Origin: an uncultured Bacteroides sp.
Lineage (GTDB): Bacteria; Bacillota; Clostridia; Christensenellales; CAG-917
Length of the DNA stretch: 64,000 nt
Direction: 5' to 3'
Assembly: GCA_964644355.1 (NCBI GenBank)
Contig: CAZXUW010000005.1
Coordinates: 24,232-88,231 of the forward strand
This document shows, piece by piece, positions 44,417 to 57,119 of the stretch. Made by a program: the position numbers and the translations under genes. Each line of letters starts with the position of its first letter. Positions within the stretch are counted from its first letter, which is position 1. Under the pieces are notes generated by a model. The model did not search any database, was not told where the DNA came from, and was given only the letters and a program-made list of their open reading frames with translations.

Positions 44417-45175
44417 TTATTCATCAAGGTACAAAGTGTCTATGTCACTCGAATTGTTTTCGTCTTTATAGCCATCAAATGTGTCTACAACATCATCAGC
44501 ATCAGTTTGATTTTCGCTTGCAAGTGCGATCTCCAGAAGCTTTTTCTTGTCCTCTTCACTTATATTTTCAAGCTTAACTCCCTCTGCTCTCATCTCCTCT
44601 TTTTCAAGTGCGATTTTGTCTTTGATAAAGGAGCCTATGACAAGTGCTATGACAAGACACATGGGGATCACAATGAGCACAACATAGCCGTACCACTGCG
44701 ACAAAAAGCCTCTCAATCCGCCTATAAACAAAGACTTGCGGACATACTTTGCTTTAATGTTGTCAGGATTCAACTGCCAGTTGTCGGCAGAAGGACTATT
44801 GTCACCTTGCGTTCTGAAATATGCAATTGAACCGTCATCATCAAGCACGATTTCAATTATGCGGTGAGTTTCGTTGTAATTGCCGTTCGGTGCCAAAAAC
44901 GTGATAATATCACCAACTTTCAGCTCGTTTACGTCATCCACTTCCTTGCAGATGATCACCTCGCCGGGCTCAATGGTGCCACTCATGCTATCCGTCAACA
45001 CGTCATAAAGCCTATAACCAAAAATTGAAGTTTCTTGTCCGCCACTTCTTTGAATAAGCATAACGGCAACAACCACCACCAAAAACACGAATAGCAAAGC
45101 AACCACCATCGTGGATACAATGTTGTAAATTTTCTTTGTCTTTGATATAGGTTTTTGATCTTCTATTTCTGCCAT
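44417..45175 (-). CDS. sipW: SipW-type (S26B) signal peptidase I, paralogue 1, with extended acidic C-terminal tail
   Basis: N-terminal TM segment, Ser box VLTDSMSGTIEPG, His box ETHRIIEI, and RTQGDNSPSAD. The order and spacing match B. subtilis SipW (LSGSMEP...THRIV...TKGDN). There is a C-terminal TM segment plus a ~65-aa D/E-rich tail. The start is ATG 45175, with no clear RBS. Confidence 0.8.
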   Translation of the reverse strand: MAEIEDQKPISKTKKIYNIVSTMVVALLFVFLVVVVAVMLIQRSGGQETSIFGYRLYDVLTDSMSGTIEPGEVIICKEVDDVNELKVGDIITFLAPNGNYNETHRIIEIVLDDDGSIAYFRTQGDNSPSADNWQLNPDNIKAKYVRKSLFIGGLRGFLSQWYGYVVLIVIPMCLVIALVIGSFIKDKIALEKEEMRAEGVKLENISEEDKKKLLEIALASENQTDADDVVDTFDGYKDENNSSDIDTLYLDE

Positions 45176-45183
45176 ATATGTTT

Positions 45184-45204
45184 GTACGCACACGAGGTGC
45201 GTAC
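45184..45204. other. 8-bp-stem hairpin between the McrC-like and sipW-1 genes
   Basis: GTACGCAC-acgag-GTGCGTAC. The T7 run is on the plus strand only (45205..45211). Confidence 0.6.
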
Positions 45205-45216
45205 TTTTTTTAGAGT

Positions 45217-48024
45217 TTAGTCTTGATCGTCGGAGTCTTTTTCCTCTGCCTTGGTTGTCATGCTGAACACGTCACCAAACGGATCTGTTATGCCACTGTC
45301 CGAGCTGAAGTGTATTCCGCCAACACCGACTTTATCCTCGTCCACGGCTTCAAGTTTGCCCTTTCTTCCCGTCGGTTGTGAATACTTCTGATTGAGCGTT
45401 GTGGGGCTCAATGCGTTGGGATCCTTACGTGGTTTTGACGATTTCTTTTTCTTTGGCGGTTGAGGTTCATTTTCAACATTTTGCGCATCAATCACCACTT
45501 TATCGTCATTTTTGGGCTGTTCATCTGCCGTTTTTGTCAATTCATCGACTTTTTCGTCTTTGACTTCAACGTCTTTTGGTTGTTCCTCGTTGGCAACTTC
45601 TCGTGTAGGTTCCTCCTGCTCGTCAGGCTTCACCTGCTCGACAGATTCTTGCTCTTGAGGCTTTGGTTTGCGGTTATACTTGCGTTTGGGTTTATCCTCT
45701 TTTTTCTCATCGAGATTGCCGAGTTTTGCCCCTTCACCCCAAGGTGTTACACTGCCATCACCCTTGAAGCTTATGCCCATACCTTGAGTATCTTCTATGC
45801 GACCGCCAACGTTTATACGCAATTCAGATTTCGCAACTTCTTGCACTTGTTGTTGCTCCTCTTGCGTATCCTCACTTGCAGACGTGGTTGGTTGTTCAAC
45901 AAGCTCTTGTTCAACCACTTTTGGTTTGCGATTGTATTTACGTTTTGGCTTTTCAACCTTGTTTTCATCAAGATTGCCCAGATTTGCACCCTCACCCCAA
46001 GGCGTAACACTGTCATTCTCTTTGATGTGTACGTCACCGACTGCGACCTTGTTTTCATCAACAGGCGTGAGATCAACCTCTTTCTTCGGCTTATTTTCAC
46101 CACTCCAAGGATCGATTTCCTCATCGGATTTTGCAATACGCACTTTGCCTTTCTTGTGCGGTTTTTCCTCATCGGCTTTAGTCTCTTGGACAGGTTGTGC
46201 AACGTCTGGCTGTTGCGTTTCCACTTCGCTCTCAACTTGAGATACCGGCACGAATGTTTCCATGCTCTCAAGTTCTCTATCAAGCTTCTCGTCTTGCACG
46301 GCTTTTTTACGGCGAGCTTCTTCCATTTCCTCAATGGAAGCATTGATCTTGTCTGTATTCTTATCTTCAAGCTCAAGATTTTCGTGCTTGTCAATCTTGA
46401 TCTTTTCAAGTTTCTTGGCTTCTTCTTCCCTGCGCTTATACTCTGCGATCTTTGCCTTTTGGAAGCTGAACGGATCCATGCCGAAATAGGTTGAGTCACT
46501 CTCAACTCCATTCTTTTCAAGCTCCTCTCTCTGCTTGCGGAATGCCTCGGCACGCTTCTTGATGTCCTCTTTGCGTCTGCGGATACGCTCTTGTCTGTCT
46601 CTCTCATCAAGTTCCTCTTGCTTGATGCGACGATATGACGTGAGACAACGATCAATAGCGTCACGAGCTTTGGCAATTTCCTCTTGCTTAAGCTTATCGT
46701 CGTCAGGACGCTTGAACACTTTACGCACCTCAAACAAGTGCTGATCAAACGTCTCAGCATCCGGCTCGAGGTCGACTTCTTCTTGATCTGCCTTTGGAGG
46801 CATCTCCTTGAGTCTCTCAACCTCAACAGGACGCTCCACAACCACTTCGACTTCTATCTCTTGAGGCTTTTCAATCTCCTCGATTTCAGGCTCTTCAGGC
46901 GGAATTTCAGTGTCGGCATCCTCATCCTCTTGAGGTTTGACCTCCTCGATATTCTCCTGTTCGTCCTCATTCTCCTCCGAATCGTCAAGCTTTTGAGCAT
47001 ATTCGTCTCTTTCAAGCTTGTCTTTGTCAAAGTCCATTTCACCAACACGCAGGAAGTCGGCAAATTCCTTATCTTCCATATCGAAGTCGGTTTCGCACTG
47101 ATCGTACAAGCTTTCAAACACCATCGTGTTGAGTGTGAGCATGCTGTTGAGTCTTGCACTGCTCTCGTCGTCGATTGGGAAATCTTCCACCTCGTCGGAC
47201 GTTGAAAAACCTGCCGTCTGTTGATACGTCTCGATAAACTGCCACAAAGTGAGAGCCTTCTTGAAATTTGGCTCCTTCAAAATGACGTTTGTACGCATGA
47301 TAGGCGGACGAACAGGTGCGGAGTTACGCATCGACTTTGCAAATGACGATGACAAGAAGTCTGTGATAATGCGGTCAATTTTTGCAACACGCTCGATCTT
47401 GGTGAGTGTGTCGGGATCAAGACGCATAATCTCATCAAAGCTTAATTGTGCAAAATACTCCGTTCTATAGGTTATTTTCTTGCTTGGAAGATTAAATCTA
47501 GACTCAACGTCAAGCTCCAAGACGTCCTGTGTTGCGGATGCCTTTTTGATCTTGTCATAACGCATTGTGACAAAGTCCTTGAGCTTGAGAAGCAAGGTGT
47601 AAATAAAGCGGTTTTCATAAATCTCAAAGGATTCTTCCTTTGTGATATTGAGAATTTTTGATGGTGTGACGTCACCCGTTTTCTCGTCAACCTTGGAGAT
47701 CATGTTGGTGTGCTGGGCAAGATATTTGACAGACTCTGTCGATATACTTCTTGCAAGCGAAACGTCAACGATATCCTCCTCTTGGACGATGAATTTTCTT
47801 GGGTTACGCACGATTGTATCGAGATTTGGAAGGATACTTTCAATGGTATCGATCCAATCTATGGAGATGTCTTGTACGAGGCGTTTTTTGGCAAGCTTAA
47901 ACTTGGATACGCCTTTATCTACACGTTTTTTGAATTGCTCATAAAAGCCCTCATCCTTGAGGACTGAAACAATCTTGTTCGCATACGATACGTACACTTC
48001 TCTTGTAATCTTATTGTCAGCCAT
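45217..48024 (-). CDS. McrC-N-terminal-domain-like protein lacking a nuclease, with a ~620-aa charged low-complexity repeat tail
   Basis: 935 aa. Residues ~1-315 look globular and include ESFEIYENRFIYTLLLKLKDF (compare E. coli McrC NEDTLANRIIKSTLAILI). No hhhDxK nuclease motif is found. Residues 316-935 are E/K/D/Q-rich with internal repeats. The gene lies immediately downstream of an McrB-like gene. Confidence 0.6.
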   Translation of the reverse strand: MADNKITREVYVSYANKIVSVLKDEGFYEQFKKRVDKGVSKFKLAKKRLVQDISIDWIDTIESILPNLDTIVRNPRKFIVQEEDIVDVSLARSISTESVKYLAQHTNMISKVDEKTGDVTPSKILNITKEESFEIYENRFIYTLLLKLKDFVTMRYDKIKKASATQDVLELDVESRFNLPSKKITYRTEYFAQLSFDEIMRLDPDTLTKIERVAKIDRIITDFLSSSFAKSMRNSAPVRPPIMRTNVILKEPNFKKALTLWQFIETYQQTAGFSTSDEVEDFPIDDESSARLNSMLTLNTMVFESLYDQCETDFDMEDKEFADFLRVGEMDFDKDKLERDEYAQKLDDSEENEDEQENIEEVKPQEDEDADTEIPPEEPEIEEIEKPQEIEVEVVVERPVEVERLKEMPPKADQEEVDLEPDAETFDQHLFEVRKVFKRPDDDKLKQEEIAKARDAIDRCLTSYRRIKQEELDERDRQERIRRRKEDIKKRAEAFRKQREELEKNGVESDSTYFGMDPFSFQKAKIAEYKRREEEAKKLEKIKIDKHENLELEDKNTDKINASIEEMEEARRKKAVQDEKLDRELESMETFVPVSQVESEVETQQPDVAQPVQETKADEEKPHKKGKVRIAKSDEEIDPWSGENKPKKEVDLTPVDENKVAVGDVHIKENDSVTPWGEGANLGNLDENKVEKPKRKYNRKPKVVEQELVEQPTTSASEDTQEEQQQVQEVAKSELRINVGGRIEDTQGMGISFKGDGSVTPWGEGAKLGNLDEKKEDKPKRKYNRKPKPQEQESVEQVKPDEQEEPTREVANEEQPKDVEVKDEKVDELTKTADEQPKNDDKVVIDAQNVENEPQPPKKKKSSKPRKDPNALSPTTLNQKYSQPTGRKGKLEAVDEDKVGVGGIHFSSDSGITDPFGDVFSMTTKAEEKDSDDQD

Positions 48025-48063
48025 GCTTTTATGAAATTATATACGCACAAAGCGTAGTTGTCA

Positions 48064-49572
48064 TTAGAACAACTTCTTAAGTCTGTTGATGTATTCCTTG
48101 CTCTCTTGCATATTTTCCTCGCCGAAAAGCTCGCTCAAATAGAGGATCAAGCCGTCGATTTCGTCACGGATGTAGGACAAGTTCAATGATTCAAACTTAC
48201 GGAAAATCTTGTTGCAGAGCACGTAGTCGAGACCGTCGATTTCCGTACCGCCACAGCCAACGTAGCTCGGAACAAACTCTTTGAGCTGTTTCACGATACG
48301 GTTGCCAAACGCAAGACGGAAGTGTTCGATAACATAGTCGTCAAGTTGGTTAACCTTGTCCAAAACCTCTTGAGAGACCTTGTAGATCTCTTGAGATTCC
48401 TTGAACATAGCCTCAAGATGCTTGTAGCTGATAAAGATATTATCCGCCCACGGAGCTTCAAATGGAACGCCCTTGCTGTTGATGTTGATAGGCATAGCAC
48501 GGTCGTAAACCTTATCTGAAATAGCAAACGTGGAGTCGTCGTTGTTTGCGGTGCCGATAAACCACATATTTTGCGGAAGTCTAAATCTACCCTTGTCGAT
48601 ATGCTTGGGGTCGTTTGCCCAACCGGACGGAACGAGGTCAACAATCCACTCGTCACGAGAAGGCATTTCGAGAATTGACAACATTTCTGCAAAATAGTAC
48701 TCAACACGCGCGATGTTCATTTCGTCGAGGACGGTGAGGTAAATTTGGTCATTCCAAGTTGCCTCGTACATCTTCTTCAAAACTTCCGTTTCATTGAAAC
48801 GCTTTGTAAATTCGTTGAAGTAGCCGAAAAGTTCGGTACGATCACGCCAAGACGGCTGAACGGAAGCGATGGTTGCGGGGTTGTTGAGGAAGATACCCAT
48901 AGCGTGCGGAAGTGACGTCTTACCTGTACCGGAAATTCCCTGCAAAATCATAAGACGAGAGGTTGACATACCCGCGATAAACAGTCTTATAATACGTGGA
49001 TTGTAATACAATCTCATCCTTGAGCAAGCGAAGTTGCGGAAGCGGTCGCAAAGCTCGGGAAGTGTGATTTCGTCATCGAATACAGGCGGAACGTAGTTCT
49101 CGTAAATCTTGTCGATTTCGGTGAGCTTGTAGAAACGAGACTCGCCTGTTGGAGACTGTTCTTGTTTTTTCTCGCCTTCTTCTTCACCCTCGTAGTTGCC
49201 GATATCACTCACACGCATACCCAAAATACGATCCTTTTCAGCGGACATTTTGATGATTTGCTTTTTGAGGTTGGCACACTCCTCAACGAGGTCTTGCGGA
49301 AGGACTTTGGTCTTGCCCAAGCGAGAGAGCTTGCGAAGTCCCAGGATAGCAAGCACGATGATTGCCACGATAACGGCAACGATAAGTACGATAAAGATAA
49401 TGGCAACCGCCCATTCGCCGGCACCAAAATATTCTGTATAGTTGGAAAAAGCATCGGTGTAGCCGTCGTTGTAGAAGATATGCAAAAATCCCCAGAAAAT
49501 ACTGCCGATTCCCTTGTCGTAGAAGGCACCGAGAAATGCTTTTAGAAATTCAAAAACCAAATTTATATTCAT
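48064..49572 (-). CDS. Membrane-anchored McrB-like AAA+ (AAA_5) GTPase
   Basis: Walker A GISGTGKTS. McrB box LTVLDEMNIARVEYYFAEMLSILE (compare McrB DEINRANLSKVFGELMMLIE). FIGTANNDDSTFAISDKVYDRA (compare MNTADRS..RRF). The N-terminal TM segment AVAIIFIVLIVAVIVAIIVLAILGL is followed by RKLSRLGKTK. Confidence 0.75.
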   Translation of the reverse strand: MNINLVFEFLKAFLGAFYDKGIGSIFWGFLHIFYNDGYTDAFSNYTEYFGAGEWAVAIIFIVLIVAVIVAIIVLAILGLRKLSRLGKTKVLPQDLVEECANLKKQIIKMSAEKDRILGMRVSDIGNYEGEEEGEKKQEQSPTGESRFYKLTEIDKIYENYVPPVFDDEITLPELCDRFRNFACSRMRLYYNPRIIRLFIAGMSTSRLMILQGISGTGKTSLPHAMGIFLNNPATIASVQPSWRDRTELFGYFNEFTKRFNETEVLKKMYEATWNDQIYLTVLDEMNIARVEYYFAEMLSILEMPSRDEWIVDLVPSGWANDPKHIDKGRFRLPQNMWFIGTANNDDSTFAISDKVYDRAMPININSKGVPFEAPWADNIFISYKHLEAMFKESQEIYKVSQEVLDKVNQLDDYVIEHFRLAFGNRIVKQLKEFVPSYVGCGGTEIDGLDYVLCNKIFRKFESLNLSYIRDEIDGLILYLSELFGEENMQESKEYINRLKKLF

Positions 49573-49651
49573 TTTTCAATCGCGCAATAATGGACAGAAA
49601 TTCCCCGTCACGGTAACGGAAGAAACACTCACACGTTTCTGCAAAAATATA

Positions 49652-49689
49652 GCAAAAAGGCTCCACCGTCCAAAAGGACGGAAAAGCCT
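49652..49689 (-). terminator. Rho-independent terminator between sipW-2 and the McrB-like gene
   Basis: Minus strand: AGGCTtttCCGTCCttttGGACGGtggAGCCT followed by TTTTTGC. It starts 5 nt after the sipW-2 stop. Confidence 0.55.
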
Positions 49690-49693
49690 AACG

Positions 49694-50623
49694 TCATTCA
49701 GAATCGCTATCGCTTATGACAGCATCGTCATCGACGTCTTGAACATCACTCTCGCTTTGAGCATTCTCATCCGTAGCGACGTTTTGGTCAGCATCAGATT
49801 GAGAGAGCGAGGCAAGATATTCTTGAGCAAGACGGCGTTTTTCCTCATCGGAAAGAGCATCCACCGTCACAACTTGCTCTGATTGCACCTTGCGTTCATT
49901 TTCAAGCTTTGCGATGACAAGCGTGCGGACAAGCACAAATGCATAAATCACAAACAAAAGGATGAGCGGAAGCACGACAACACAGAAGAAGCGTGTACGC
50001 CCCTGCTCTGGATCCTGAATCCAGTTGGTGAAACCGCCAACATTCTTGAGCACATCGCCATCCGTAGCGGTTGTTCCATCTGACGAACCCCAAGTTGCCT
50101 TGATGTTGGAAGCATAAGTATTGCTTTCAACGTTGCCGATGATGTCATTGTTGCGTTCACTTTCCGGCTTTGCAAGCTCCGCTGCCGCCTCTTGCCAAGA
50201 GTGATCCTGATTGTCACCTCGAGTGACGTATGCAATCAATTTGCCGTTTGTATCAAACTTTTTCGCCACGATTCTGTGGGTGTTCAAAACACCTGTACGC
50301 ACCCTGAACGTGACAACCTGCCCGATTTGGAGCTCACCATCGGTTGTGTAGTCGTATGTTTTGCCGACAATCATATCGTCCTTGTCAAAAGTCGGACTCA
50401 TAGAGTCGGATGCGACCACCATATACACGGTATCTCCAAAAGTAGGCAAACGGAACTCCTCATCACTCGTAGAAGCAATGGTGAAAATAGCCACAACGAG
50501 TGCAAACACGACAAGCACGATACAGCAAGCCGTTGCCACCCAATTGAGGATATTCATCACGTTCTTCTGCCTCGGAGTGAGTTCTTTCTTTTCTCTCTTA
50601 TGAGAGCCTTTTGCTGATTCCAT
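49694..50623 (-). CDS. sipW: SipW-type (S26B) signal peptidase I, paralogue 2, with insertion and extended acidic C-terminal tail
   Basis: N-terminal TM segment, Ser box VVASDSMSPTFDKDD, His box NTHRIVAK, and TRGDNQD. There is a ~60-aa insertion before the C-terminal TM segment and a ~85-aa tail. A GGAAGG RBS is present. Confidence 0.8.
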   Translation of the reverse strand: MESAKGSHKREKKELTPRQKNVMNILNWVATACCIVLVVFALVVAIFTIASTSDEEFRLPTFGDTVYMVVASDSMSPTFDKDDMIVGKTYDYTTDGELQIGQVVTFRVRTGVLNTHRIVAKKFDTNGKLIAYVTRGDNQDHSWQEAAAELAKPESERNNDIIGNVESNTYASNIKATWGSSDGTTATDGDVLKNVGGFTNWIQDPEQGRTRFFCVVVLPLILLFVIYAFVLVRTLVIAKLENERKVQSEQVVTVDALSDEEKRRLAQEYLASLSQSDADQNVATDENAQSESDVQDVDDDAVISDSDSE

Positions 50624-50791
50624 AAAAACCTTCCTATTGATGCTTCTTCGTCCCCGTCCACGACTTATTGCCCCACCGCCACGCCAAAGGCGTAGCCCGA
50701 AAGAAAACGAATGACTATTGACATCACACGAGCCATGCTTATTGCCCTTGAACGGAATGCTCCGCTTTGCTCGAATGACTTTGTTGTATAC

Positions 50792-50809
50792 GTATAGTTA
50801 TAACTATAC
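50792..50809. promoter_or_regulatory. 18-bp perfect palindrome at the predicted TSS (candidate operator)
   Basis: GTATAGTTATAACTATAC is self-complementary over 18 nt and begins ~7 nt downstream of the -10 box. Confidence 0.55.
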
Positions 50810-50815
50810 ATTAGT

Positions 50816-50844
50816 ATTTTACTAGAAATAACACACTATGTCAA
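50816..50844 (-). promoter_or_regulatory. Strong sigma-A-type promoter of the sipW-2 operon
   Basis: Minus strand: TTGACA (50844..50839), 17 nt, TAAAAT (50821..50816). The predicted TSS is ~50809, giving a ~186-nt leader. Confidence 0.6.
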
Positions 50845-50937
50845 TAGTAATTTACAAAACGGCAGTTTTTGTCCGTAAACGCAATGTGACATAAGGCATT
50901 TGCAATCACCATGATGCTGTTGGAGCAATGCGTCAAA

Positions 50938-51162
50938 GTGCCGATTGACGACACCACTATAAAATGTCAAAGATTTCACAGCACACTGTGCTTGAGATAT
51001 AAAAAACGAAAAATAACATACAGAAATAAGGTTTTTTTAGAAAGGGGGCTTTATTTCGATAAGGAGAAAAACGATGAAAAAGAAAGGTTTGCTTATCTCA
51101 ACAATCGCAATGGTTGTTGTGCTGATCGCAGCTCTTACTACATCAACTTACGCTTGGTTTAC
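50938..51162 (+). repeat. Left arm of a 225-bp inverted repeat (promoter + 5'UTR + first 29-30 codons of TasA-like gene A)
   Basis: Identical to the reverse complement of 53063..53287 at 224/225 positions. The single mismatch is at 51143 (TCA Ser versus ACA Thr). Confidence 0.95.
50975..51003 (+). promoter_or_regulatory. Promoter of TasA-like gene A with a spacer palindrome
   Basis: TTCACA (50975..50980), 17 nt, TATAAA (50998..51003). The palindrome AGCACA-c-TGTGCT (50980..50992) lies in the spacer. Confidence 0.5.
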
Positions 51163-52138
51163 TGTGTCAACCACTACGAATATTGATGGTTTTACCGTCA
51201 GCGTAGAAGCCGGTAACGTTATGGCAATTGGTTTGAACGCACAAGGTTATACATCATACAGCGATGCTGCATCCCCAGACAATTTTGTTTCAGGAACTGT
51301 AACCTATACACATGGTGGTGATGATGATGGTGTTGCTAATGGATATTGGACAGGCAACCAAGGCCTTGGTGCATCTATTTCGCATGATATTGTTTGGTCA
51401 ACTCAAAGTAAAGCTGTTGGATTCTCAAGTGCAGGAGCACTTTCAGGTGCAACATATGCAAACACAAAGTTTTATAAGAATGATGGCACAGTTGAAAATA
51501 ATAACGGATCATCTTTCGATTTAGCAATTGCTGCAAATGGTTCCACAACATCCATGGAAGCTCCACGCCTTGCTATTGAAAACAAGAAAACTACAGCTGA
51601 TACCGACGAGTCCACTAATGGTGACTATGTTTATATGTTCCTTGGTGCACAACCAACACAAGCTTTGATGGATAATACAAACATTTTGCATGTTGTCATC
51701 CAACCACAAGGCACAGGCACAAGAATTGGTATGGCCGCAGCTATCCATGTTGCATACAGAGTTAATGGTGGTGATTGGGAAGATGTTGATGTCTATGGTG
51801 CTGCAAACAAACATTATAATGACGAAAGAGCCTCGACAGAAGCTAAAATTTATGGTGATATTACTGGTACAGGCAAATCCAATGGTTTAGATGCAAATTC
51901 TTTGTCATATTCTACGACAACATATCAAACCACTATAACGGGTGCAAAGAGTGTTGATATCCCGTTGACACAATACACCGATGCTACATCAAGTGCACCG
52001 TTTGATCAAATTGAATTGATAATTTATGTTGCAGGTGCAGACAGCGATTGCCTTGACTCAGCAAAGAATGGTTCTATCAGAATTGGCATATTCTTCGGAG
52101 CACAAGAAGCAATCACTTCAAATGAAGGGAATAACTAA
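51074..52138 (+). CDS. TasA/camelysin-like secreted protein A with SipW-cognate-type signal peptide
   Basis: Signal peptide MKKKGLLISTIAMVVVLIAALTTSTYAWFT (compare TasA ...GGGTWAAFND and CalY ...GGGTFAYFSD). The C-terminus KNGSIRIGIFFGAQE resembles TasA QGNSIKLQFSFEATQ. An AAGGAG RBS is present and SipW genes are adjacent. Confidence 0.7.
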   Translation: MKKKGLLISTIAMVVVLIAALTTSTYAWFTVSTTTNIDGFTVSVEAGNVMAIGLNAQGYTSYSDAASPDNFVSGTVTYTHGGDDDGVANGYWTGNQGLGASISHDIVWSTQSKAVGFSSAGALSGATYANTKFYKNDGTVENNNGSSFDLAIAANGSTTSMEAPRLAIENKKTTADTDESTNGDYVYMFLGAQPTQALMDNTNILHVVIQPQGTGTRIGMAAAIHVAYRVNGGDWEDVDVYGAANKHYNDERASTEAKIYGDITGTGKSNGLDANSLSYSTTTYQTTITGAKSVDIPLTQYTDATSSAPFDQIELIIYVAGADSDCLDSAKNGSIRIGIFFGAQEAITSNEGNN

Positions 52139-52160
52139 TAAAACCAAAATTGATAACGAA

Positions 52161-52188
52161 AAAACACGGCTCGATTGAGCCGTGTTTT
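52161..52188. terminator. Bidirectional terminator between the convergent TasA-like genes
   Basis: AAAACACGGCTC-gat-tGAGCCGTGTTTT. Confidence 0.65.
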
Positions 52189-52209
52189 GCGTTATAAGAT
52201 GATTACGAA

Positions 52210-53151
52210 TTAGGTTGAACTTTCTGCTTTCTTATCTGCAATAAAGTTAATTGTTATAACTGACTTAACGTTTGCTGCATTACTATTGCAGTCTTGATCT
52301 TTACCATTGATAAAGAGTTTAATATGGATTTGATGAATTTCACCTTGTGGGACAATATCAGTTCCGTTGCCAGTAATTTCTATTTCATATGTCTTTGCGC
52401 CAGGATTCCAAGTTATATCCGGTATTTCAATTGGATTATAATTGGTTGTACCATTTATTGTTGTCGTTGCACTATGACCCTCGTACACATCAATTATGTC
52501 TGACCAACTGCCATTATCAATTTTGTAGATGAAAGAAATAGCTGCATTCATGCCCAATACTGTTGAAGATGAATCAGGGTTAACGCCTATAACGCATTTT
52601 ACTTTTGTAACATTTTGTTTGGCAGGTGCAACGCCAAATGCAACGTCCAGATAGTCGCCAGTATTGTCTTCACCTTTGATACCATTTGCAACTGCATTTT
52701 CAATTTCGGTTCTTGTAACATCTTGACCGCTACCAGAAGCTTTTACCCAATTCCCTTCAGGTTGCAAAGTTTCATCAATAGTACCCGAAGAATCATTACC
52801 TGCGACATAGGCTGTACCTGTATAAACAGCTTTCTTCATGCCAGCAAGACTCAAACCGGTATCAACCTCAAAACCAAGACCTTCTGTACCATCCCACGCA
52901 TTTTTAGTGATATCATATGAAAGACCAGAACCGCTAACAAATAAATTTTGTCCGATAGAATCGCCTGTATTTATTTTATTTGTTTTGGAAACACCAATTG
53001 TCAAATCAGAGTCAGAAGTAACTTCAAAATTTATTGGCCTAACTTCAGTTTTCGAAGCTGCTGTAAACCAAGCGTAAGTTGTTGTAGTAAGAGCTGCGAT
53101 CAGCACAACAACCATTGCGATTGTTGAGATAAGCAAACCTTTCTTTTTCAT
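52210..53151 (-). CDS. TasA/camelysin-like secreted protein B with SipW-cognate-type signal peptide
   Basis: Signal peptide MKKKGLLISTIAMVVVLIAALTTTTYAWFT, identical to A except for one residue. The mature part is highly diverged from A. C-terminal motif IHIKLFINGKDQDCNSNAANVKSVITINFIA. Confidence 0.7.
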   Translation of the reverse strand: MKKKGLLISTIAMVVVLIAALTTTTYAWFTAASKTEVRPINFEVTSDSDLTIGVSKTNKINTGDSIGQNLFVSGSGLSYDITKNAWDGTEGLGFEVDTGLSLAGMKKAVYTGTAYVAGNDSSGTIDETLQPEGNWVKASGSGQDVTRTEIENAVANGIKGEDNTGDYLDVAFGVAPAKQNVTKVKCVIGVNPDSSSTVLGMNAAISFIYKIDNGSWSDIIDVYEGHSATTTINGTTNYNPIEIPDITWNPGAKTYEIEITGNGTDIVPQGEIHQIHIKLFINGKDQDCNSNAANVKSVITINFIADKKAESST

Positions 53152-53287: not shown

Positions 53288-53676
53288 ATTTGCGTAAAGA
53301 TTTGCGATGCGAATCTTTTATGCAATGATATCCCTTTGGGATGATATCCAACTGCTTTGGATTGTGGCATATCTGACAATGCAGACAAGTGCACTTATAC
53401 ATTATGTATATTAATTATAGCCTTTGCGTATGCCAATGTCAACACTAAATTTGTATTTTTGTGCTTTTTCAGCGATTTAATACAACAATTTGTTTTATTT
53501 TTTAATACTGTTGTCGTTTTATCCAACAGATGTATTGCAATTTTCTTGTTGCTCATCAAGCATTTGTTTTGGCTGTTTTGCAAGATTTTATGAGCAAAAT
53601 GCGGATTTCACCACTCTTAAAAGGATATCATCGGCAAAGCCGATATCATTTGCAAGCAATGCTTGCAAGTTTTTTG

Positions 53677-54759
53677 TCAGCTTGCGTAGAAATTCAAGCC
53701 CATCTTGCAGTAGCCACCGATGGCGGAGTCGATGCAATCAAAATCACTGCCCTCAATCCATATGCTGAGATAGCAGTACATGATGTCTCCCTTGGCTAGA
53801 TCAAGACTGTTTTGAAAGACAAATTCGTCAGATGCGAATGGTGTGGTTGCTTTGTAGCCGTGCAATTGTGCGGTCATCTTGGTGTCTGCATCCGCATTGA
53901 GCATGGCATCATAGTCTTTGAGATAGTAATATTTGCCATTTGGATGCACGTTAAGACCGACTTCTCTGTCGTACGCAACGCATTCGATATAGCCGTCCTC
54001 TGCCGTTCTGCCAACGTTGTAGGCATTGTCGGCAAGACGCTCACTGTCACTCAAAGAGGCATATACGTTGATGTTGGTGGCACTCTCCCCATCTTCAAGC
54101 CCGATAGGATTCTTGAGGCTGTATCCCCACATAACTCGCACGGAGTCTTGCAAATCGTGATCGTCAAACTCAAGCGTCATTTCATAATCGACGTGAGCTT
54201 CCTCGTTGCCGTTGTTGCGGAGCATGAAGGTGAATGCTATATATTGCTCGCCATTCATCTCGCCAAGCTCAAACTCGTCGGCATTGAGCAAGGAATATAC
54301 CTCGCTTTCGCTGAGCGGAGTTTCCGTGCCATAGCGTGAATCATAGCTGATGTTCCAGATGTCATCGGGACCGTCGGCGTTGAGGTATGGCGTCCAATAT
54401 TCATTGTCCATGGACAAAGAAATCGACTTGTCCTTGTTGCGATTGTTGACCGTGATACGCACGTTGTTTTCTTCCATAAGCAACAGCATGATGTACACGA
54501 TTGACGTAACCACAAGAGCAAACACAAGCATGATGAGCATCGCCCTCTTGACCTTGGCACGAAGCTCCTCTCTCTTGACCTTTTTGGACGCAACGATACT
54601 GTCCTCCCATTCCTTTTTCAAACGGGCGGTCTCTTTTGCGGAATTGCGAGCACTCTTTTTGCTCGATTTCGCCTTTTTGGCAGATGAGGACTCCTCAAGC
54701 TCATCGTAAGCTTGCTCGTCCATCTCATCCTGCATTCTTTCAATATCGTTTTCGCTCAT
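53677..54759 (-). CDS. Single-pass (type II) membrane protein with an ectodomain ending in the TasA-like C-terminal motif
   Basis: A charged cytoplasmic N-terminus of 72 aa, then the TM segment AMLIMLVFALVVTSIVYIMLLLM, then a ~265-aa ectodomain. The C-terminus CYLSIWIEGSDFDCIDSAIGGYCKMGLNFYAS aligns with A (LIIYVAGADSDCLDSAKNGSIRIGIFFGA) and B. Confidence 0.65.
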   Translation of the reverse strand: MSENDIERMQDEMDEQAYDELEESSSAKKAKSSKKSARNSAKETARLKKEWEDSIVASKKVKREELRAKVKRAMLIMLVFALVVTSIVYIMLLLMEENNVRITVNNRNKDKSISLSMDNEYWTPYLNADGPDDIWNISYDSRYGTETPLSESEVYSLLNADEFELGEMNGEQYIAFTFMLRNNGNEEAHVDYEMTLEFDDHDLQDSVRVMWGYSLKNPIGLEDGESATNINVYASLSDSERLADNAYNVGRTAEDGYIECVAYDREVGLNVHPNGKYYYLKDYDAMLNADADTKMTAQLHGYKATTPFASDEFVFQNSLDLAKGDIMYCYLSIWIEGSDFDCIDSAIGGYCKMGLNFYAS

Positions 54760-54846: not shown

Positions 54847-56655
54847 TTAGAACTTATGGTATGTTCCGTCACCTGCAAAGTAGCCGTATGGCACCCATTT
54901 GCCGATCGTGTCGTCAAAATAGCCGTTGTCAACAATCTCGCCGTTGAGGTCTGTGTAGGTGTAGTCTATCCATCTGCCTTCCTCGTCAAAGTAGCCGTCA
55001 TAGACGTTGCCGTCTTTGTCAACCCACTGTGCCTTGTCGTTGTAAGAGCCTTCCTTGGTGACGTCAAACTGCTCGTATTCAACCCAGTTGCCTTCCACAT
55101 CGAAATAGCCGTTGAACACGTTGCCATCCTCGTCAACCCACTGACCTTTGTCATTGTATTTGCCGATAAGCTCCGGCTCACCGTCGTTCTTGTTCTCGAT
55201 ACGCATCGTGATGCCAAATCCGCTCACGCCGGCATCCATGCCAAGCCCACCGAACATGCTGTCACTCTTGTATTCGTTGAAAAGCTTTTCTTCCTTGTCG
55301 AAATCAGCCTTGATTTTCTTGGGTTTCTTTGGCTTTTTGACTTCCGGTTGAGCAGGTCTTATAGGTGCGGATACGCTGTTTTCGTCTTGATCTACGACAG
55401 TCTCTTTCTTCTTGTCAGACGGCTTTTCCTCATCTAATGCTTGCTCGTCCTTGGACTTCTCTTTTTCAGCCTTATCTGCTTTGTCCTCAAGCGGACGATC
55501 TACGCCAAGCTCGCTCTTTTTCTGCGATGCAAAGCTCAATGCCAAAGCGCTCTGCACGTCGCCCTCATAACGCATGCGAGACATCTCGTCAAGAAGCTTG
55601 TTGTCTCTCTCATCTGCCTCGGGTGAGTCTTGCTCGATGAGCTTTGCCTGTGCTTGAACTCTCTCCTCCGCCGCCTTGCGTGCATTCTGCTTCTGCTGTT
55701 CAAGACGCACTTGATATGGCGATTTTGCAAGCTCCGGACGTGGCGATGTGGGCATAACCCTCTCTGCATCATTCTCTTTTTCTTTCTCGATGGCGGAATT
55801 TCTCAATGCCTCAAGCTCGTTTGCAACCGCTTTTTCTTTGGCATCTAGCACCTTTTGGAGCTTCTTGAGATACTGATCTTTCTTTTCTCCGACAGGATCT
55901 TTCAAAAGCAAAAATTCATTGGTAACCCATCTTGAAAGTTTGCTTACCGCCCTACCTGTCAAGAGCTTTATGCCTTCTTTCTTGAAACGCGCGTATTGAC
56001 TTGGTGAGTCAACCCCTTCCATAATCAAGCCGATTTTGTTGCTCTTGCAAAAACTTACAAGCATTGCTAGCACCTTTTTCTTGTTTTGAGCGGTGTCAAA
56101 ATAGCTTGCTTCACATCTCAAATAGTCAAAATTAAACTCCGCAAGCACGTCTAGTGCGTTGTAGTCCTCACCAAACGCCGATGCACAAATTTTGTAGCCG
56201 AGCTTACGCAAACGGTTGTATCTCTTTTTGCCTTCCTCATCAAGCCCCACAAGATTGGACACAAAGAAGGATATGACGAGATTGCTCTTTTTGTAGCCCA
56301 AATCCTTGAGTGTTGAGGTGAGCACGTCAAAATCTTTGTCATTATCCAAAAATCTTGTCGTAATGGGCAGACAATACGTGAGGTTGTCAGGGATAAGGAA
56401 ATTCTCTCGCATAACGAGGTCATAATTGACAAGCTCCTCAAGGGCAATGACGTTAAGCTCGTTGATACGCACGGAATTTTCTGCAATATAAAAATAATTG
56501 CATACGCTCATTCTCCCCAAATACCTGTCGTTGAGAACTTGAAACGCATCAACAAAAACTACCTTCTTGCTCTTGCCGGAAGCTTCAACAACTCCCCTGA
56601 AGAAAAAGTCAATAGGTTTGTACAGCGTTCTTTTTGCGTATGCCGTAGTATTCAT
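54847..56655 (-). CDS. Degenerate EAL-domain protein with a charged linker and C-terminal aromatic/Gly repeats
   Basis: Residues 1-245 follow the EAL-domain layout: YKPIDFF, VDAFQVLNDR, YFYIAENSVRINELNVIALEEL, LRKLGYKICASAFGEDYNALDVLAEFNFDYLRCE and LIMEGVDSPSQYARFKKEGIKLLTG. Most catalytic residues are replaced. Residues 250-490 are K/E-rich. Residues 495-602 contain repeats of YNDK(G/A)QWVD.DGNV..GYFD.EG.W..Y. An AGGTGGGA RBS precedes ATG 56655. Confidence 0.65.
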   Translation of the reverse strand: MNTTAYAKRTLYKPIDFFFRGVVEASGKSKKVVFVDAFQVLNDRYLGRMSVCNYFYIAENSVRINELNVIALEELVNYDLVMRENFLIPDNLTYCLPITTRFLDNDKDFDVLTSTLKDLGYKKSNLVISFFVSNLVGLDEEGKKRYNRLRKLGYKICASAFGEDYNALDVLAEFNFDYLRCEASYFDTAQNKKKVLAMLVSFCKSNKIGLIMEGVDSPSQYARFKKEGIKLLTGRAVSKLSRWVTNEFLLLKDPVGEKKDQYLKKLQKVLDAKEKAVANELEALRNSAIEKEKENDAERVMPTSPRPELAKSPYQVRLEQQKQNARKAAEERVQAQAKLIEQDSPEADERDNKLLDEMSRMRYEGDVQSALALSFASQKKSELGVDRPLEDKADKAEKEKSKDEQALDEEKPSDKKKETVVDQDENSVSAPIRPAQPEVKKPKKPKKIKADFDKEEKLFNEYKSDSMFGGLGMDAGVSGFGITMRIENKNDGEPELIGKYNDKGQWVDEDGNVFNGYFDVEGNWVEYEQFDVTKEGSYNDKAQWVDKDGNVYDGYFDEEGRWIDYTYTDLNGEIVDNGYFDDTIGKWVPYGYFAGDGTYHKF

Positions 56656-56933
56656 TTCCCACCTTTCCACACGCACGCTAGCGGAGCGTACGAGCGCATA
56701 ATACTCTAATATACTTTTTCAATTATACCATTAGACAACAAAATTGGCAATAGGTTTTGATATTTTTTTACATTTTGTACAATTGCTTGCAATTAAATCC
56801 AAATTGAAACGGGCAAATATAGTCAAATATTTTGCGATTTGCCACACGGCAAACGAAACGTGCAAAACACACCATAACTGCAACTTGCATATCATAACAA
56901 TTCAAAAAGCCCTCGCAATGAGAGCTTTTTGTC

Positions 56934-57021
56934 TTGGTGCCGAAAATCGGGGTCGAACCGATACGATGTTTCCATCGAGGGATTTTAAGTCCCTTGCGTC
57001 TGCCTATTCCGCCATTCCGGC
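56934..57021 (-). tRNA. tRNA-Leu (anticodon UAA)
   Basis: Reverse complement GCCGGAATGGCGGAATAGGCAGACGCAAGGGACTTAAAATCCCTCGATGGAAACATCGTATCGGTTCGACCCCGATTTTCGGCACCA. It has a long variable arm and the anticodon loop CTTAAAA. Confidence 0.9.
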
Positions 57022-57097: not shown

Positions 57098-57119
57098 GTC
57101 TGCCTATTCCGCCATTCCG
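57098..57119 (-). other. 22-nt duplicate of the tRNA-Leu 5' acceptor/D-arm segment (tRNA fragment)
   Basis: GTCTGCCTATTCCGCCATTCCG occurs at 56998..57019 (inside tRNA-Leu) and again at 57098..57119. The second copy has no anticodon arm, T-arm or 3' acceptor partner. Confidence 0.6.

Follow-up and report, generated by a model that had tools for sequence, protein, structure and literature searches.

A degenerate EAL-domain protein with EAGR-box-like repeats, probably a c-di-GMP-independent adaptor of a CoCoPALM-type surface-fibre locus in Clostridia

The receptors LapD, FimX and YkuI bind cyclic dimeric GMP (c-di-GMP) through EAL domains that keep the base and phosphate contacts; according to the LapD and FimX structures, true degenerate-EAL receptors retain the Q of the YQP motif, the R of EALxR and an N. 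YdiV (STM1344) and BluF (YcgF) are degenerate EAL proteins that are independent of c-di-GMP and act through protein binding (PMC3510510, PMC3509220). In Mycoplasma, cytoskeletal scaffold proteins of the terminal organelle contain EAGR boxes, for which a role in protein-protein contacts is assumed (PMC9262362). Bell et al. 2024 (PMC11090510) name the CoCoPALM class of systems without analysing it. Here we describe a gene from a 64,000-nucleotide stretch of contig CAZXUW010000005.1, from an uncultured member of the Clostridia (the whole stretch is denoted the window). The gene, denoted the EAL gene, lies beside a CoCoPALM-type locus and encodes a 602-amino acid (aa) protein made of a degenerate EAL domain, a charged linker and EAGR-box-like repeats (Table 1). 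We consider it probable that its role is that of a c-di-GMP-independent adaptor in the cytoplasm, a pseudoenzyme scaffold dedicated to the surface-fibre locus.

The EAL fold of the N-terminal domain is genuine. Pfam PF00563 (EAL) matches residues 27-239 with 74.1 bits (gathering score 31.3, E=1.4e-20) and also matches 28 of 28 aligned homologues, fragments of the NCBIfam phosphodiesterase and LapD models match far under their cut-offs, and a family profile searched against PDB sequences matched 35 EAL structures, the best at 2e-10. The AlphaFold2 (AF2) model of residues 1-262 is confident (predicted local distance difference test, pLDDT, 86.1; predicted template-modelling score, pTM, 0.83). 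With this model Foldseek returned PDB matches with E-values down to 1.5e-16 at probability 1.00 and template-modelling (TM) scores of 0.70-0.77 to TBD1265 (3n3t/2r6o), Bd1971, RocR, MorA, FimX and LapD; the structures 3n3t, 6hq5 and 4rnh score 0.74-0.77. An initial annotation, made from the sequence alone, had proposed that residues 1-245 follow the EAL order, and the statistically supported Pfam match, the model and the Foldseek results all bear this out.

The active site carried by this fold is degenerate. We mapped the canonical positions through profile alignments, including one to Bd1971. Within the metal-binding and catalytic set of class-I EAL phosphodiesterases only E213 is identical, and D36 is a conservative change. 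At seven canonical positions the residue has changed altogether (Q of YQP, R of EALxR, N, E of ExTE, both D of DDFG and Q of QG), the catalytic K has become R, and all these replacements are fixed across the family. The alignments agree with the initial annotation at ExTE, DDFGTGYSS, KxD, EGVE and QG and depart from it at two N-terminal motifs. YQPI had been read as YKPI, but the alignment to Bd1971 places the canonical F-YQP-IV on F-F19-R20-G21-VV. The beta-1 strand reads F-F-F-R-G-V-V, a distant homologue from genus g3 has YFYRPV there, and Y12-K-P-I is a family-specific motif at the end of the N-terminal helix. EALxR had been read as DAFQVLNDR; the EAL triplet is indeed D36-A-F, but the Arg aligns with V40 and not with R44. 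The metal-binding Asn, which falls on P97, was missing from the initial list. Nearly all catalytic and metal positions are thus changed after proper alignment, and the domain appears to be catalytically dead, as had been proposed; judged by these alignments, phosphodiesterase activity can be excluded with high confidence.

The host genome (1.475 Mb, 95.7% complete) contains no GGDEF domain, no PilZ domain and no second EAL domain by profile searches that were positive in control genomes, the GGDEF search in 8 of 14. We extended the count to 101 genomes of the same GTDB family, many of them fragmented metagenome-assembled genomes (MAGs). An EAL homologue is carried by 63 and a GGDEF by 21, with both in 13; GGDEF is found in 21% of carriers and 21% of non-carriers (odds ratio 0.98, p=1), and 50 of the 63 carriers have none. 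A single-contig genome of 1.6 Mb (G244, completeness estimate 90%) has the EAL gene and no GGDEF match. A search of the host genome for the c-di-GMP-I riboswitch was uninformative, as no control genome gave a match. Because the host genome has neither GGDEF nor PilZ, most carriers have no GGDEF and the Q, R and N contact positions are replaced, it is very unlikely that the protein is a receptor for endogenous c-di-GMP in most of its hosts.

On the minus strand the EAL gene begins with an ATG at 56655, preceded by a Shine-Dalgarno sequence (AAGGTGG), and runs to a last codon ending at 54850 and a stop at 54849-54847. The protein is predicted to be cytoplasmic since it has no hydrophobic segment: neither a transmembrane segment nor a signal peptide is seen, the maximal Kyte-Doolittle value over 19-mers is 1.21 and the N-terminus is hydrophilic. 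This agrees with the earlier presumption that the repeats reside in the cytoplasm. The next gene encodes a membrane-anchored TasA-like protein, here denoted the anchor. The two genes appear to form a two-gene operon, because they have their own promoter, no terminator was found between them, and a terminator-like hairpin follows the anchor gene. The promoter-like site, near-consensus with an extended -10, follows the terminator of a tRNA cluster. The 5' untranslated region of the EAL gene forms no hairpin better than shuffles (z=-0.6), and besides the tRNAs no Rfam family reached its gathering score in the surroundings of the gene.

The EAL gene is linked to the CoCoPALM-type locus by synteny and by co-occurrence. 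We collected 168 full-length homologues (52-99% identity, 57% mean column identity), all from uncultured gut or rumen Clostridia labelled Christensenella or Clostridia MAGs, a lineage with small genomes of 1.1-1.9 Mb. Fifty loci were compared, and every one with enough flank keeps the same order: xseA-xseB-ispA, a gap (occupied by tRNAs in the window), the EAL gene, the 360-aa anchor gene and one to three TasA-like paralogues, then genes for a SipW-like peptidase, an McrB-like AAA_5 protein, an McrC-like DUF2357 protein and a second SipW-like peptidase, and finally comM. An anchor-like match stands immediately 3' of the EAL match in 46 of the 50; the other four loci end or carry nothing downstream. 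The TasA-like paralogues have a SipW-type N-terminus, TYAWFT. The locus contains the McrB-like GTPase, the McrC-like partner and the signal-peptidase-family genes by which CoCoPALM is defined in PMC11090510. In the 101 genomes, the EAL gene and the McrB-like gene are both present in 52, the EAL gene alone in 11, the McrB-like gene alone in 7 and neither in 31 (odds ratio 21, p=2e-10, by statistics that ignore phylogeny; several of the exceptions are fragmented MAGs). These results place the protein in a fibre locus, as had been suggested at the outset (fibre/biofilm locus). The McrB-like protein is 95-97% identical within the genus and 74-86% across the family, and the EAL protein of the same genomes 76-80% and 50-60%, respectively. 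The extreme conservation of the McrB-like protein therefore suggests a core cellular role rather than defence. In the anchor, conservation peaks on the cytoplasmic side next to the membrane, at the 10-mer WEDSIVASKK (residues 51-60; identity 0.83 among 47 sequences), which is conserved beyond any block of the TasA-like ectodomain.

More distant loci retain the pairing of EAL and anchor genes. The window and its close homologues are denoted type A; type B loci were found in two other families of the order and, within the family and even the genus of the host, in some genomes (L054 in G060, L055 in G134, L057 in G033, L061 in G210, L065 in G239, and L066/L067 in G159). The type B EAL domain is 28-31% identical to that of the window, scores 57-74 bits against Pfam and forms the C-terminus of a 557-1013-aa protein with an acidic, unrelated N-terminal region and no EAGR-like repeats. 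Between the acidic region and the EAL domain, type B proteins carry an unannotated module, globular and present once or twice, with the motif ...FEN.L.....V.L.Y..LKNE.LSY..V.... In four of six loci the type B EAL gene lies directly upstream of an anchor-like gene; SipW, McrB-like and McrC-like genes follow in two of these four, the other two being short or separate contigs. The anchor lies deeper in the cluster in two loci (L061, L065), and a further distant homologue (L056) has no anchor nearby. The type B McrB-like protein is 61-66% identical to that of the window. The EAL domains of both types share QVLNDxxLGxM, AExSxRIxxLN and FDYLR but not the old active site, R20, D36, R180 and T233 being absent as common positions from the type B relatives. 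Because type B keeps the pair without the repeats and despite its unrelated N-terminus, the dead EAL domain and the anchor appear to be the conserved core. In two loci (L054, L055) the two genes overlap by 17-20 nucleotides (nt), which suggests that the EAL protein and the anchor may be stoichiometric partners. We also looked for SipW-EAL fusions with the type B EAL domain as query; none of the 13 matches carries a peptidase domain.

The linker, of about 245 aa, is rich in K, E, A and D, has a net charge of -6 and is probably helical or disordered. The initial annotation had described a K/E-rich linker of about 240 aa, and charge and length hold, but the region is not a plain spacer, as it contains conserved islands. 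In the motif at residues 301-322, P302, R306, P307, E308, S312, P313, Y314, R317, L318, E319 and Q321 are invariant. Residues 306-320 (RPELAKSPYQVRLEQ) reach 0.95-0.96 identity over 28 homologues that are otherwise 53-90% identical, above the 75% average of the EAL domain. The second island (GDVQSALALSF) is conserved at 0.8 identity, and the third, a conserved basic block followed by Gly and Phe (KKIKADFDKEEKLFNEY...FGGLG..GFG), directly precedes the repeats. By their conservation, these islands would be typical docking motifs in a disordered or helical setting.

The C-terminal repeats are related to the EAGR box, a relationship that is well supported. The domain has 24 F/W/Y and 15 G in 107 aa (36% aromatic plus Gly). 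Its first and second units are identical at 21 of 33 residues, and the best 30-mer self-match is 21, compared with a maximum of 10 in 300 shuffles. The initial annotation counted three to four repeats; three units are recognised here. AF2 predicts an all-beta chain of beta-hairpins (pLDDT 80.6), and the top Foldseek matches, although weak, are choline-binding repeats, in keeping with the beta-hairpin character noted at first. The repeats had also been called novel, which does not hold: 9 of 28 homologues match PF16713 (EAGR_box) at E up to 0.01, and the sole match of the repeat profile in the PDB is 4dcz, the EAGR box of MG200, a weak one (E=0.33) with the common motif GYFDExGxW. A local Foldseek match to 4dcz spans 25 columns at a root-mean-square deviation of 1.6 A and 48% identity, but with E=2.4. 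Membership in the Pfam family itself would be borderline, to judge from the scores. Two homologues reach 28.5-28.9 bits against the PF16713 cut-off of 27, covering profile positions 13-34 only, and the window protein has no PF16713 match at E up to 1 and scores 9.4 bits against 34.1 for TIGR03834. Searched against 1.84 billion representative proteins, the repeat profile gave 50 matches; five of the nine non-family matches scanned were PF16713-positive (32-43 bits), and some other PF16713-positive matches carry envelope-protein domains. No second copy of the repeat domain was found in the host genome. Identity with choline-binding, MORN or YD repeats was considered and rejected, as Foldseek gave only non-significant matches (E 0.013-0.5, TM-score 0.14-0.20), and neither this protein nor the homologues scanned match Pfam CW_binding or MORN.

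Together with the loss of c-di-GMP genes and the linkage to the locus, the dead EAL domain fits a protein-interaction module better than a receptor; both options had been raised by the initial annotation. Phosphodiesterase chemistry and nucleotide contacts would have been lost from the EAL fold, which would be kept as a protein-binding module. One promoter of their own would serve the EAL gene and the gene of the TasA-like anchor. Docked on the conserved juxtamembrane tail of the anchor, the EAL protein would probably sit just beneath the membrane, on its cytoplasmic side. Other cytoplasmic parts of the machine (the tails of the McrC-like and SipW proteins and the McrB-like GTPase) would be contacted through the invariant motifs of the long charged linker and through the acidic, aromatic EAGR-like repeats. 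Protein binding as such, the choice of partners and a structural rather than regulatory role are what we infer from this arrangement. Several observations weigh against the protein being such an adaptor. Thirteen carrier genomes have one GGDEF protein each, and the host genome encodes a cyclic di-AMP (c-di-AMP) cyclase (DAC domain). In the old active-site pocket, R20, D36, N166, R180 and T233 are invariant throughout type A, which would also fit a small anionic ligand. The co-occurrence statistics ignore phylogeny, and many of the genomes counted are fragmented MAGs. Finally, in genus g3 the homologue (962-972 aa, with EAL domain, coiled-coil or acidic linker and repeats) occurs in genomes without an McrB-like gene and has no anchor beside it, so the EAL protein can work outside the CoCoPALM context.

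A more specific version of the adaptor proposal concerns the McrC-like tail. Among the tails compared (the window protein and its homologues in L058-L064), those of type A contain the motif T-[FW]-G-E-[QG]-x-A-[ND]-L-G, usually followed by a basic KPKRKYNRKPK, and those of type B lack it; the tail in the window carries TPWGEGANLGNL twice. In a sample of about three independent lineages only, [WF]G motifs number 28 in seven type A tails, where 5.3 are expected; in five type B tails, whose EAL proteins have no repeats, there are 0 against 0.7 expected, a zero that is not significant alone. In g3, a gene next to the EAL homologue (L051, 3650-5341, minus; L052, 7189-8847, plus) encodes a charged 552-563-aa protein with no Pfam match and three repeats of the form ~K.KYTRPSGK.F.P..IDE[AS][AS]IWG. 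It is speculative that the EAGR-like repeats read these [WF]G motifs; the idea fits because the motif is enriched in type A tails and absent in type B, and because IWG occurs in the g3 neighbour. Whether, in addition, the EAL domain clamps the anchor tail while the repeats read the [W/F]G motifs of the disordered McrC-like tail (T-[FW]-G-E-[QG]-x-A-N-L-G), so that GTP hydrolysis by the McrBC-derived motor reaches the base of the TasA-like fibre, we regard as doubtful. In this reading, and just as doubtfully, the dead EAL protein and the anchor would together span the membrane and couple the parts of a Gram-positive fibre machine not characterised before.

We think it unlikely that the protein is instead a sensor of another small ligand (c-di-AMP, pGpG, another nucleotide or an anionic metabolite) that switches the adaptor on or off through a remodelled pocket lined by R20, R180, D36, N166 and E213. 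The pocket positions are changed yet invariant within type A and include two new arginines, and the host genome encodes a c-di-AMP cyclase. However, the pocket is not conserved between types A and B, though both share the anchor partnership: the Q position is R in type A and D in type B, the E position D and N, and EGVE has SINCE as its type B counterpart. We know of no precedent for an EAL-fold receptor of c-di-AMP.

It is also rather improbable that the protein is an anti-regulator of the YdiV/BluF type, in which a dead EAL domain would sequester a transcription factor or recombinase and thereby govern whether the fibre genes are expressed or undergo phase switching. Among c-di-GMP-independent EAL proteins, those studied in most depth do act in this way, YdiV on FlhD (PMC3510510) and BluF on BluR (PMC3509220). 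In the locus, however, no regulator gene stays linked to the EAL gene; its constant neighbour encodes a membrane protein, with reading frames that overlap in type B, and YdiV and BluF are compact, in contrast to a protein that carries 350 aa of linker and repeats. Specific homology is not indicated either, neither YdiV nor BluF being among the 32-35 PDB sequence matches or the 50 fold matches listed.

The receptor proposal of the initial annotation, in which fibre assembly is gated by c-di-GMP bound to the degenerate EAL domain, in the manner of LapD, FimX or YkuI, was dropped as the leading explanation after the GGDEF and PilZ censuses, and we now regard it as very improbable. The fold is nearest to c-di-GMP-binding EAL domains, including the FimX and LapD structures, E213 and D36 are kept, and 13 of the 63 carrier genomes have one GGDEF gene. 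Set against this are the replaced Q of YQP, R of EALxR and Asn, the 50 carriers without GGDEF, the odds ratio close to one, and a host genome without GGDEF, PilZ or another EAL. A possible gene link between EAL and GGDEF in genome G173 was likewise rejected, as the GGDEF gene lies ~7.5 kb from the EAL gene, beyond the housekeeping genes xseA and ispA. That the protein is a decaying remnant of a once active phosphodiesterase, with no present function, is scarcely credible, even though c-di-GMP signalling has been lost from the reduced genomes of the lineage (1.1-1.9 Mb) and a few assemblies hold split or interrupted copies, because the linker motifs and repeats appear to be under strong purifying selection: full-length homologues persist down to 52% identity (168 sequences, 57% mean column identity), with invariant motifs in all three parts and a frame intact in nearly all genomes.

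The split copies and those with in-frame stops are found in G179:C157 (TGA and TAG), G244:C1 (two pieces, on a single contig) and G239:C1 (TAG and TAA), and may be sequencing errors, phase variation or pseudogenes. At the two ends of the operon we noted two further elements. Upstream, a stretch of ~22 nt from the start of tRNA-Leu (cggaatggcggaataggcagac) occurs twice, at 57098-57119 (minus) and at 57000-57021; the partial copy, between tRNA-Cys and tRNA-Leu and ~98 nt upstream of the real tRNA-Leu (56935-57021), looks like a truncated tRNA remnant. Downstream, a sub-threshold Rfam match to Gut-1 RNA (RF01706) at 53580-53651 on the minus strand covers the full model length with 31.9 bits (gathering score 50, E=0.002); it is intergenic, just 3' of the anchor gene, and overlaps terminator-like hairpins.

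Table 1. Features of the EAL gene, its product and the neighbouring locus (nucleotide positions in the window; residues of the 602-aa protein).
Feature	Position	Strand	Residues	Remarks
Whole EAL gene	54847..56655	minus		602-aa protein: degenerate EAL + linker + EAGR-like repeats; stop codon included
Degenerate EAL-fold domain	55906..56622	minus	~12-250	
Q of YQP			R20	
E-A-L			D36-A37-F38	
R of EALxR			V40	I/V in the family
Metal-binding N (vNlS)			P97	
E-x-T-E			S128-F-F-V	
DDFGTGYSS			S159-A-F-G-E-D-Y-N-A	
K-x-D			R180-C-E	
E-G-V-E			E213-G-V-D	
Q-G			T233-G	
Linker	55171..55905	minus	251-495	charged: K 15%, E 13.5%
Conserved motif MPxxPRPELAKSPYQVRLEQQK	55690..55755	minus	301-322	most conserved stretch of the protein
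Second linker island RMRYEGDVQSALALSFA	55528..55578	minus	~360-376	
Third linker island	55204..55335	minus	~441-484	basic KKPKKIKADFDKEEKLFNEY, then Gly/Phe element SMFGGLGM..GFGIT
C-terminal repeat domain	54850..55170	minus	496-602	acidic, aromatic/Gly-rich beta-hairpin repeats, EAGR-box-like
Repeat units (three)			499-531, 537-569, 570-602	
Promoter-like site of the EAL-anchor operon	56722..56750	minus		TTGCCA-17-TATAAT, extended TG, 11/12 match
tRNA-Gly, tRNA-Cys, tRNA-Leu upstream of the EAL gene	57387-56935	minus		
Terminator after tRNA cluster	56931-56903	minus		
Anchor, predicted co-operonic partner	53677..54759	minus		360 aa; charged cytoplasmic N-tail, one transmembrane helix, TasA-like ectodomain
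Terminator-like hairpin after anchor gene	53629..53645	minus		end of predicted two-gene unit
Rest of CoCoPALM-type locus	44417..53151	mixed		
TasA-like secreted paralogue	52210-53151	minus		
TasA-like secreted paralogue	51074-52138	plus		
SipW-like peptidase	49694-50623			309 aa
McrB-like AAA_5 GTPase	48064-49572	minus		transmembrane-anchored
McrC-like DUF2357 protein	45217-48024	minus		~600-aa tail
SipW-like peptidase	44417-45193			258 aa

EAL pseudoenzymes and EAGR repeats are already known kinds, met here in an unstudied system; what is new is that the linker carries conserved motifs, that the context is GGDEF-less and that EAL protein and anchor form a fixed pair across divergent CoCoPALM loci. 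The family offers a natural example of an EAL fold under apparently strong selection where c-di-GMP signalling has been discarded, and the labels 'c-di-GMP phosphodiesterase' and 'c-di-GMP receptor' assigned by annotation pipelines are probably wrong for this lineage of common gut and rumen Clostridia. EAGR-box-like repeats, previously discussed only for Mycoplasma gliding proteins, are now seen in Christensenellales-type Clostridia. The CoCoPALM fibre systems, themselves unstudied, would have in the dead EAL protein and its membrane anchor a constant component not described before, and two small domains with a few peptide motifs may provide a handle on the coupling of an McrBC-derived GTPase to a surface fibre. 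If the repeats do read the McrC-like tail, the EAGR box would be a general reader of aromatic-Gly peptide motifs, and a Clostridial system would be connected with the scaffolds of the cytoskeleton in the Mycoplasma terminal organelle.

Compared with LapD, FimX and YkuI, the protein shares the EAL fold, the loss of metal ligands and a tie to the biogenesis of a surface adhesin or pilus, and its TM-scores to the EAL domains of FimX and LapD are 0.70-0.76. It differs in that Q has become R, R has become V/I and N has become P, and in that its own host makes no c-di-GMP. The choline-binding repeats of LytA, CbpF and Pce and the MORN repeats resemble the C-terminal domain as short aromatic beta-hairpins and as its top non-significant Foldseek matches; repeats of the choline-binding type lie outside the cell, but no export signal is present in this protein.

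The locus resembles CoCoPALM, as defined in one paragraph of PMC11090510, in its McrB-like protein with a transmembrane and coiled-coil N-terminus, its McrC-like protein with a coiled-coil tail and its signal-peptidase-family proteins. Neither an EAL nor an EAGR component is mentioned in the main text or the accessible supplements of that paper, and the dead EAL protein and anchor as a fixed pair are not described there. YdiV and BluF, which have the EAL fold without catalytic residues, are the closest functional analogy to the adaptor proposed here. They bind transcription factors in organisms rich in c-di-GMP enzymes, in contrast to a protein with a 350-aa extension and an operonic membrane protein in mostly GGDEF-less genomes. 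The EAGR box proteins MG200, MG312 (HMW1) and MG386 share with it the GYFDExGxW beta-hairpin, the aromatic and Gly enrichment, a cytoplasmic location and the placement of the box beside long charged low-complexity regions. Unlike theirs, the repeats described here are triplicated and acidic, and they belong to a member of the Clostridia rather than a Mollicute and to a fibre locus rather than a gliding organelle.

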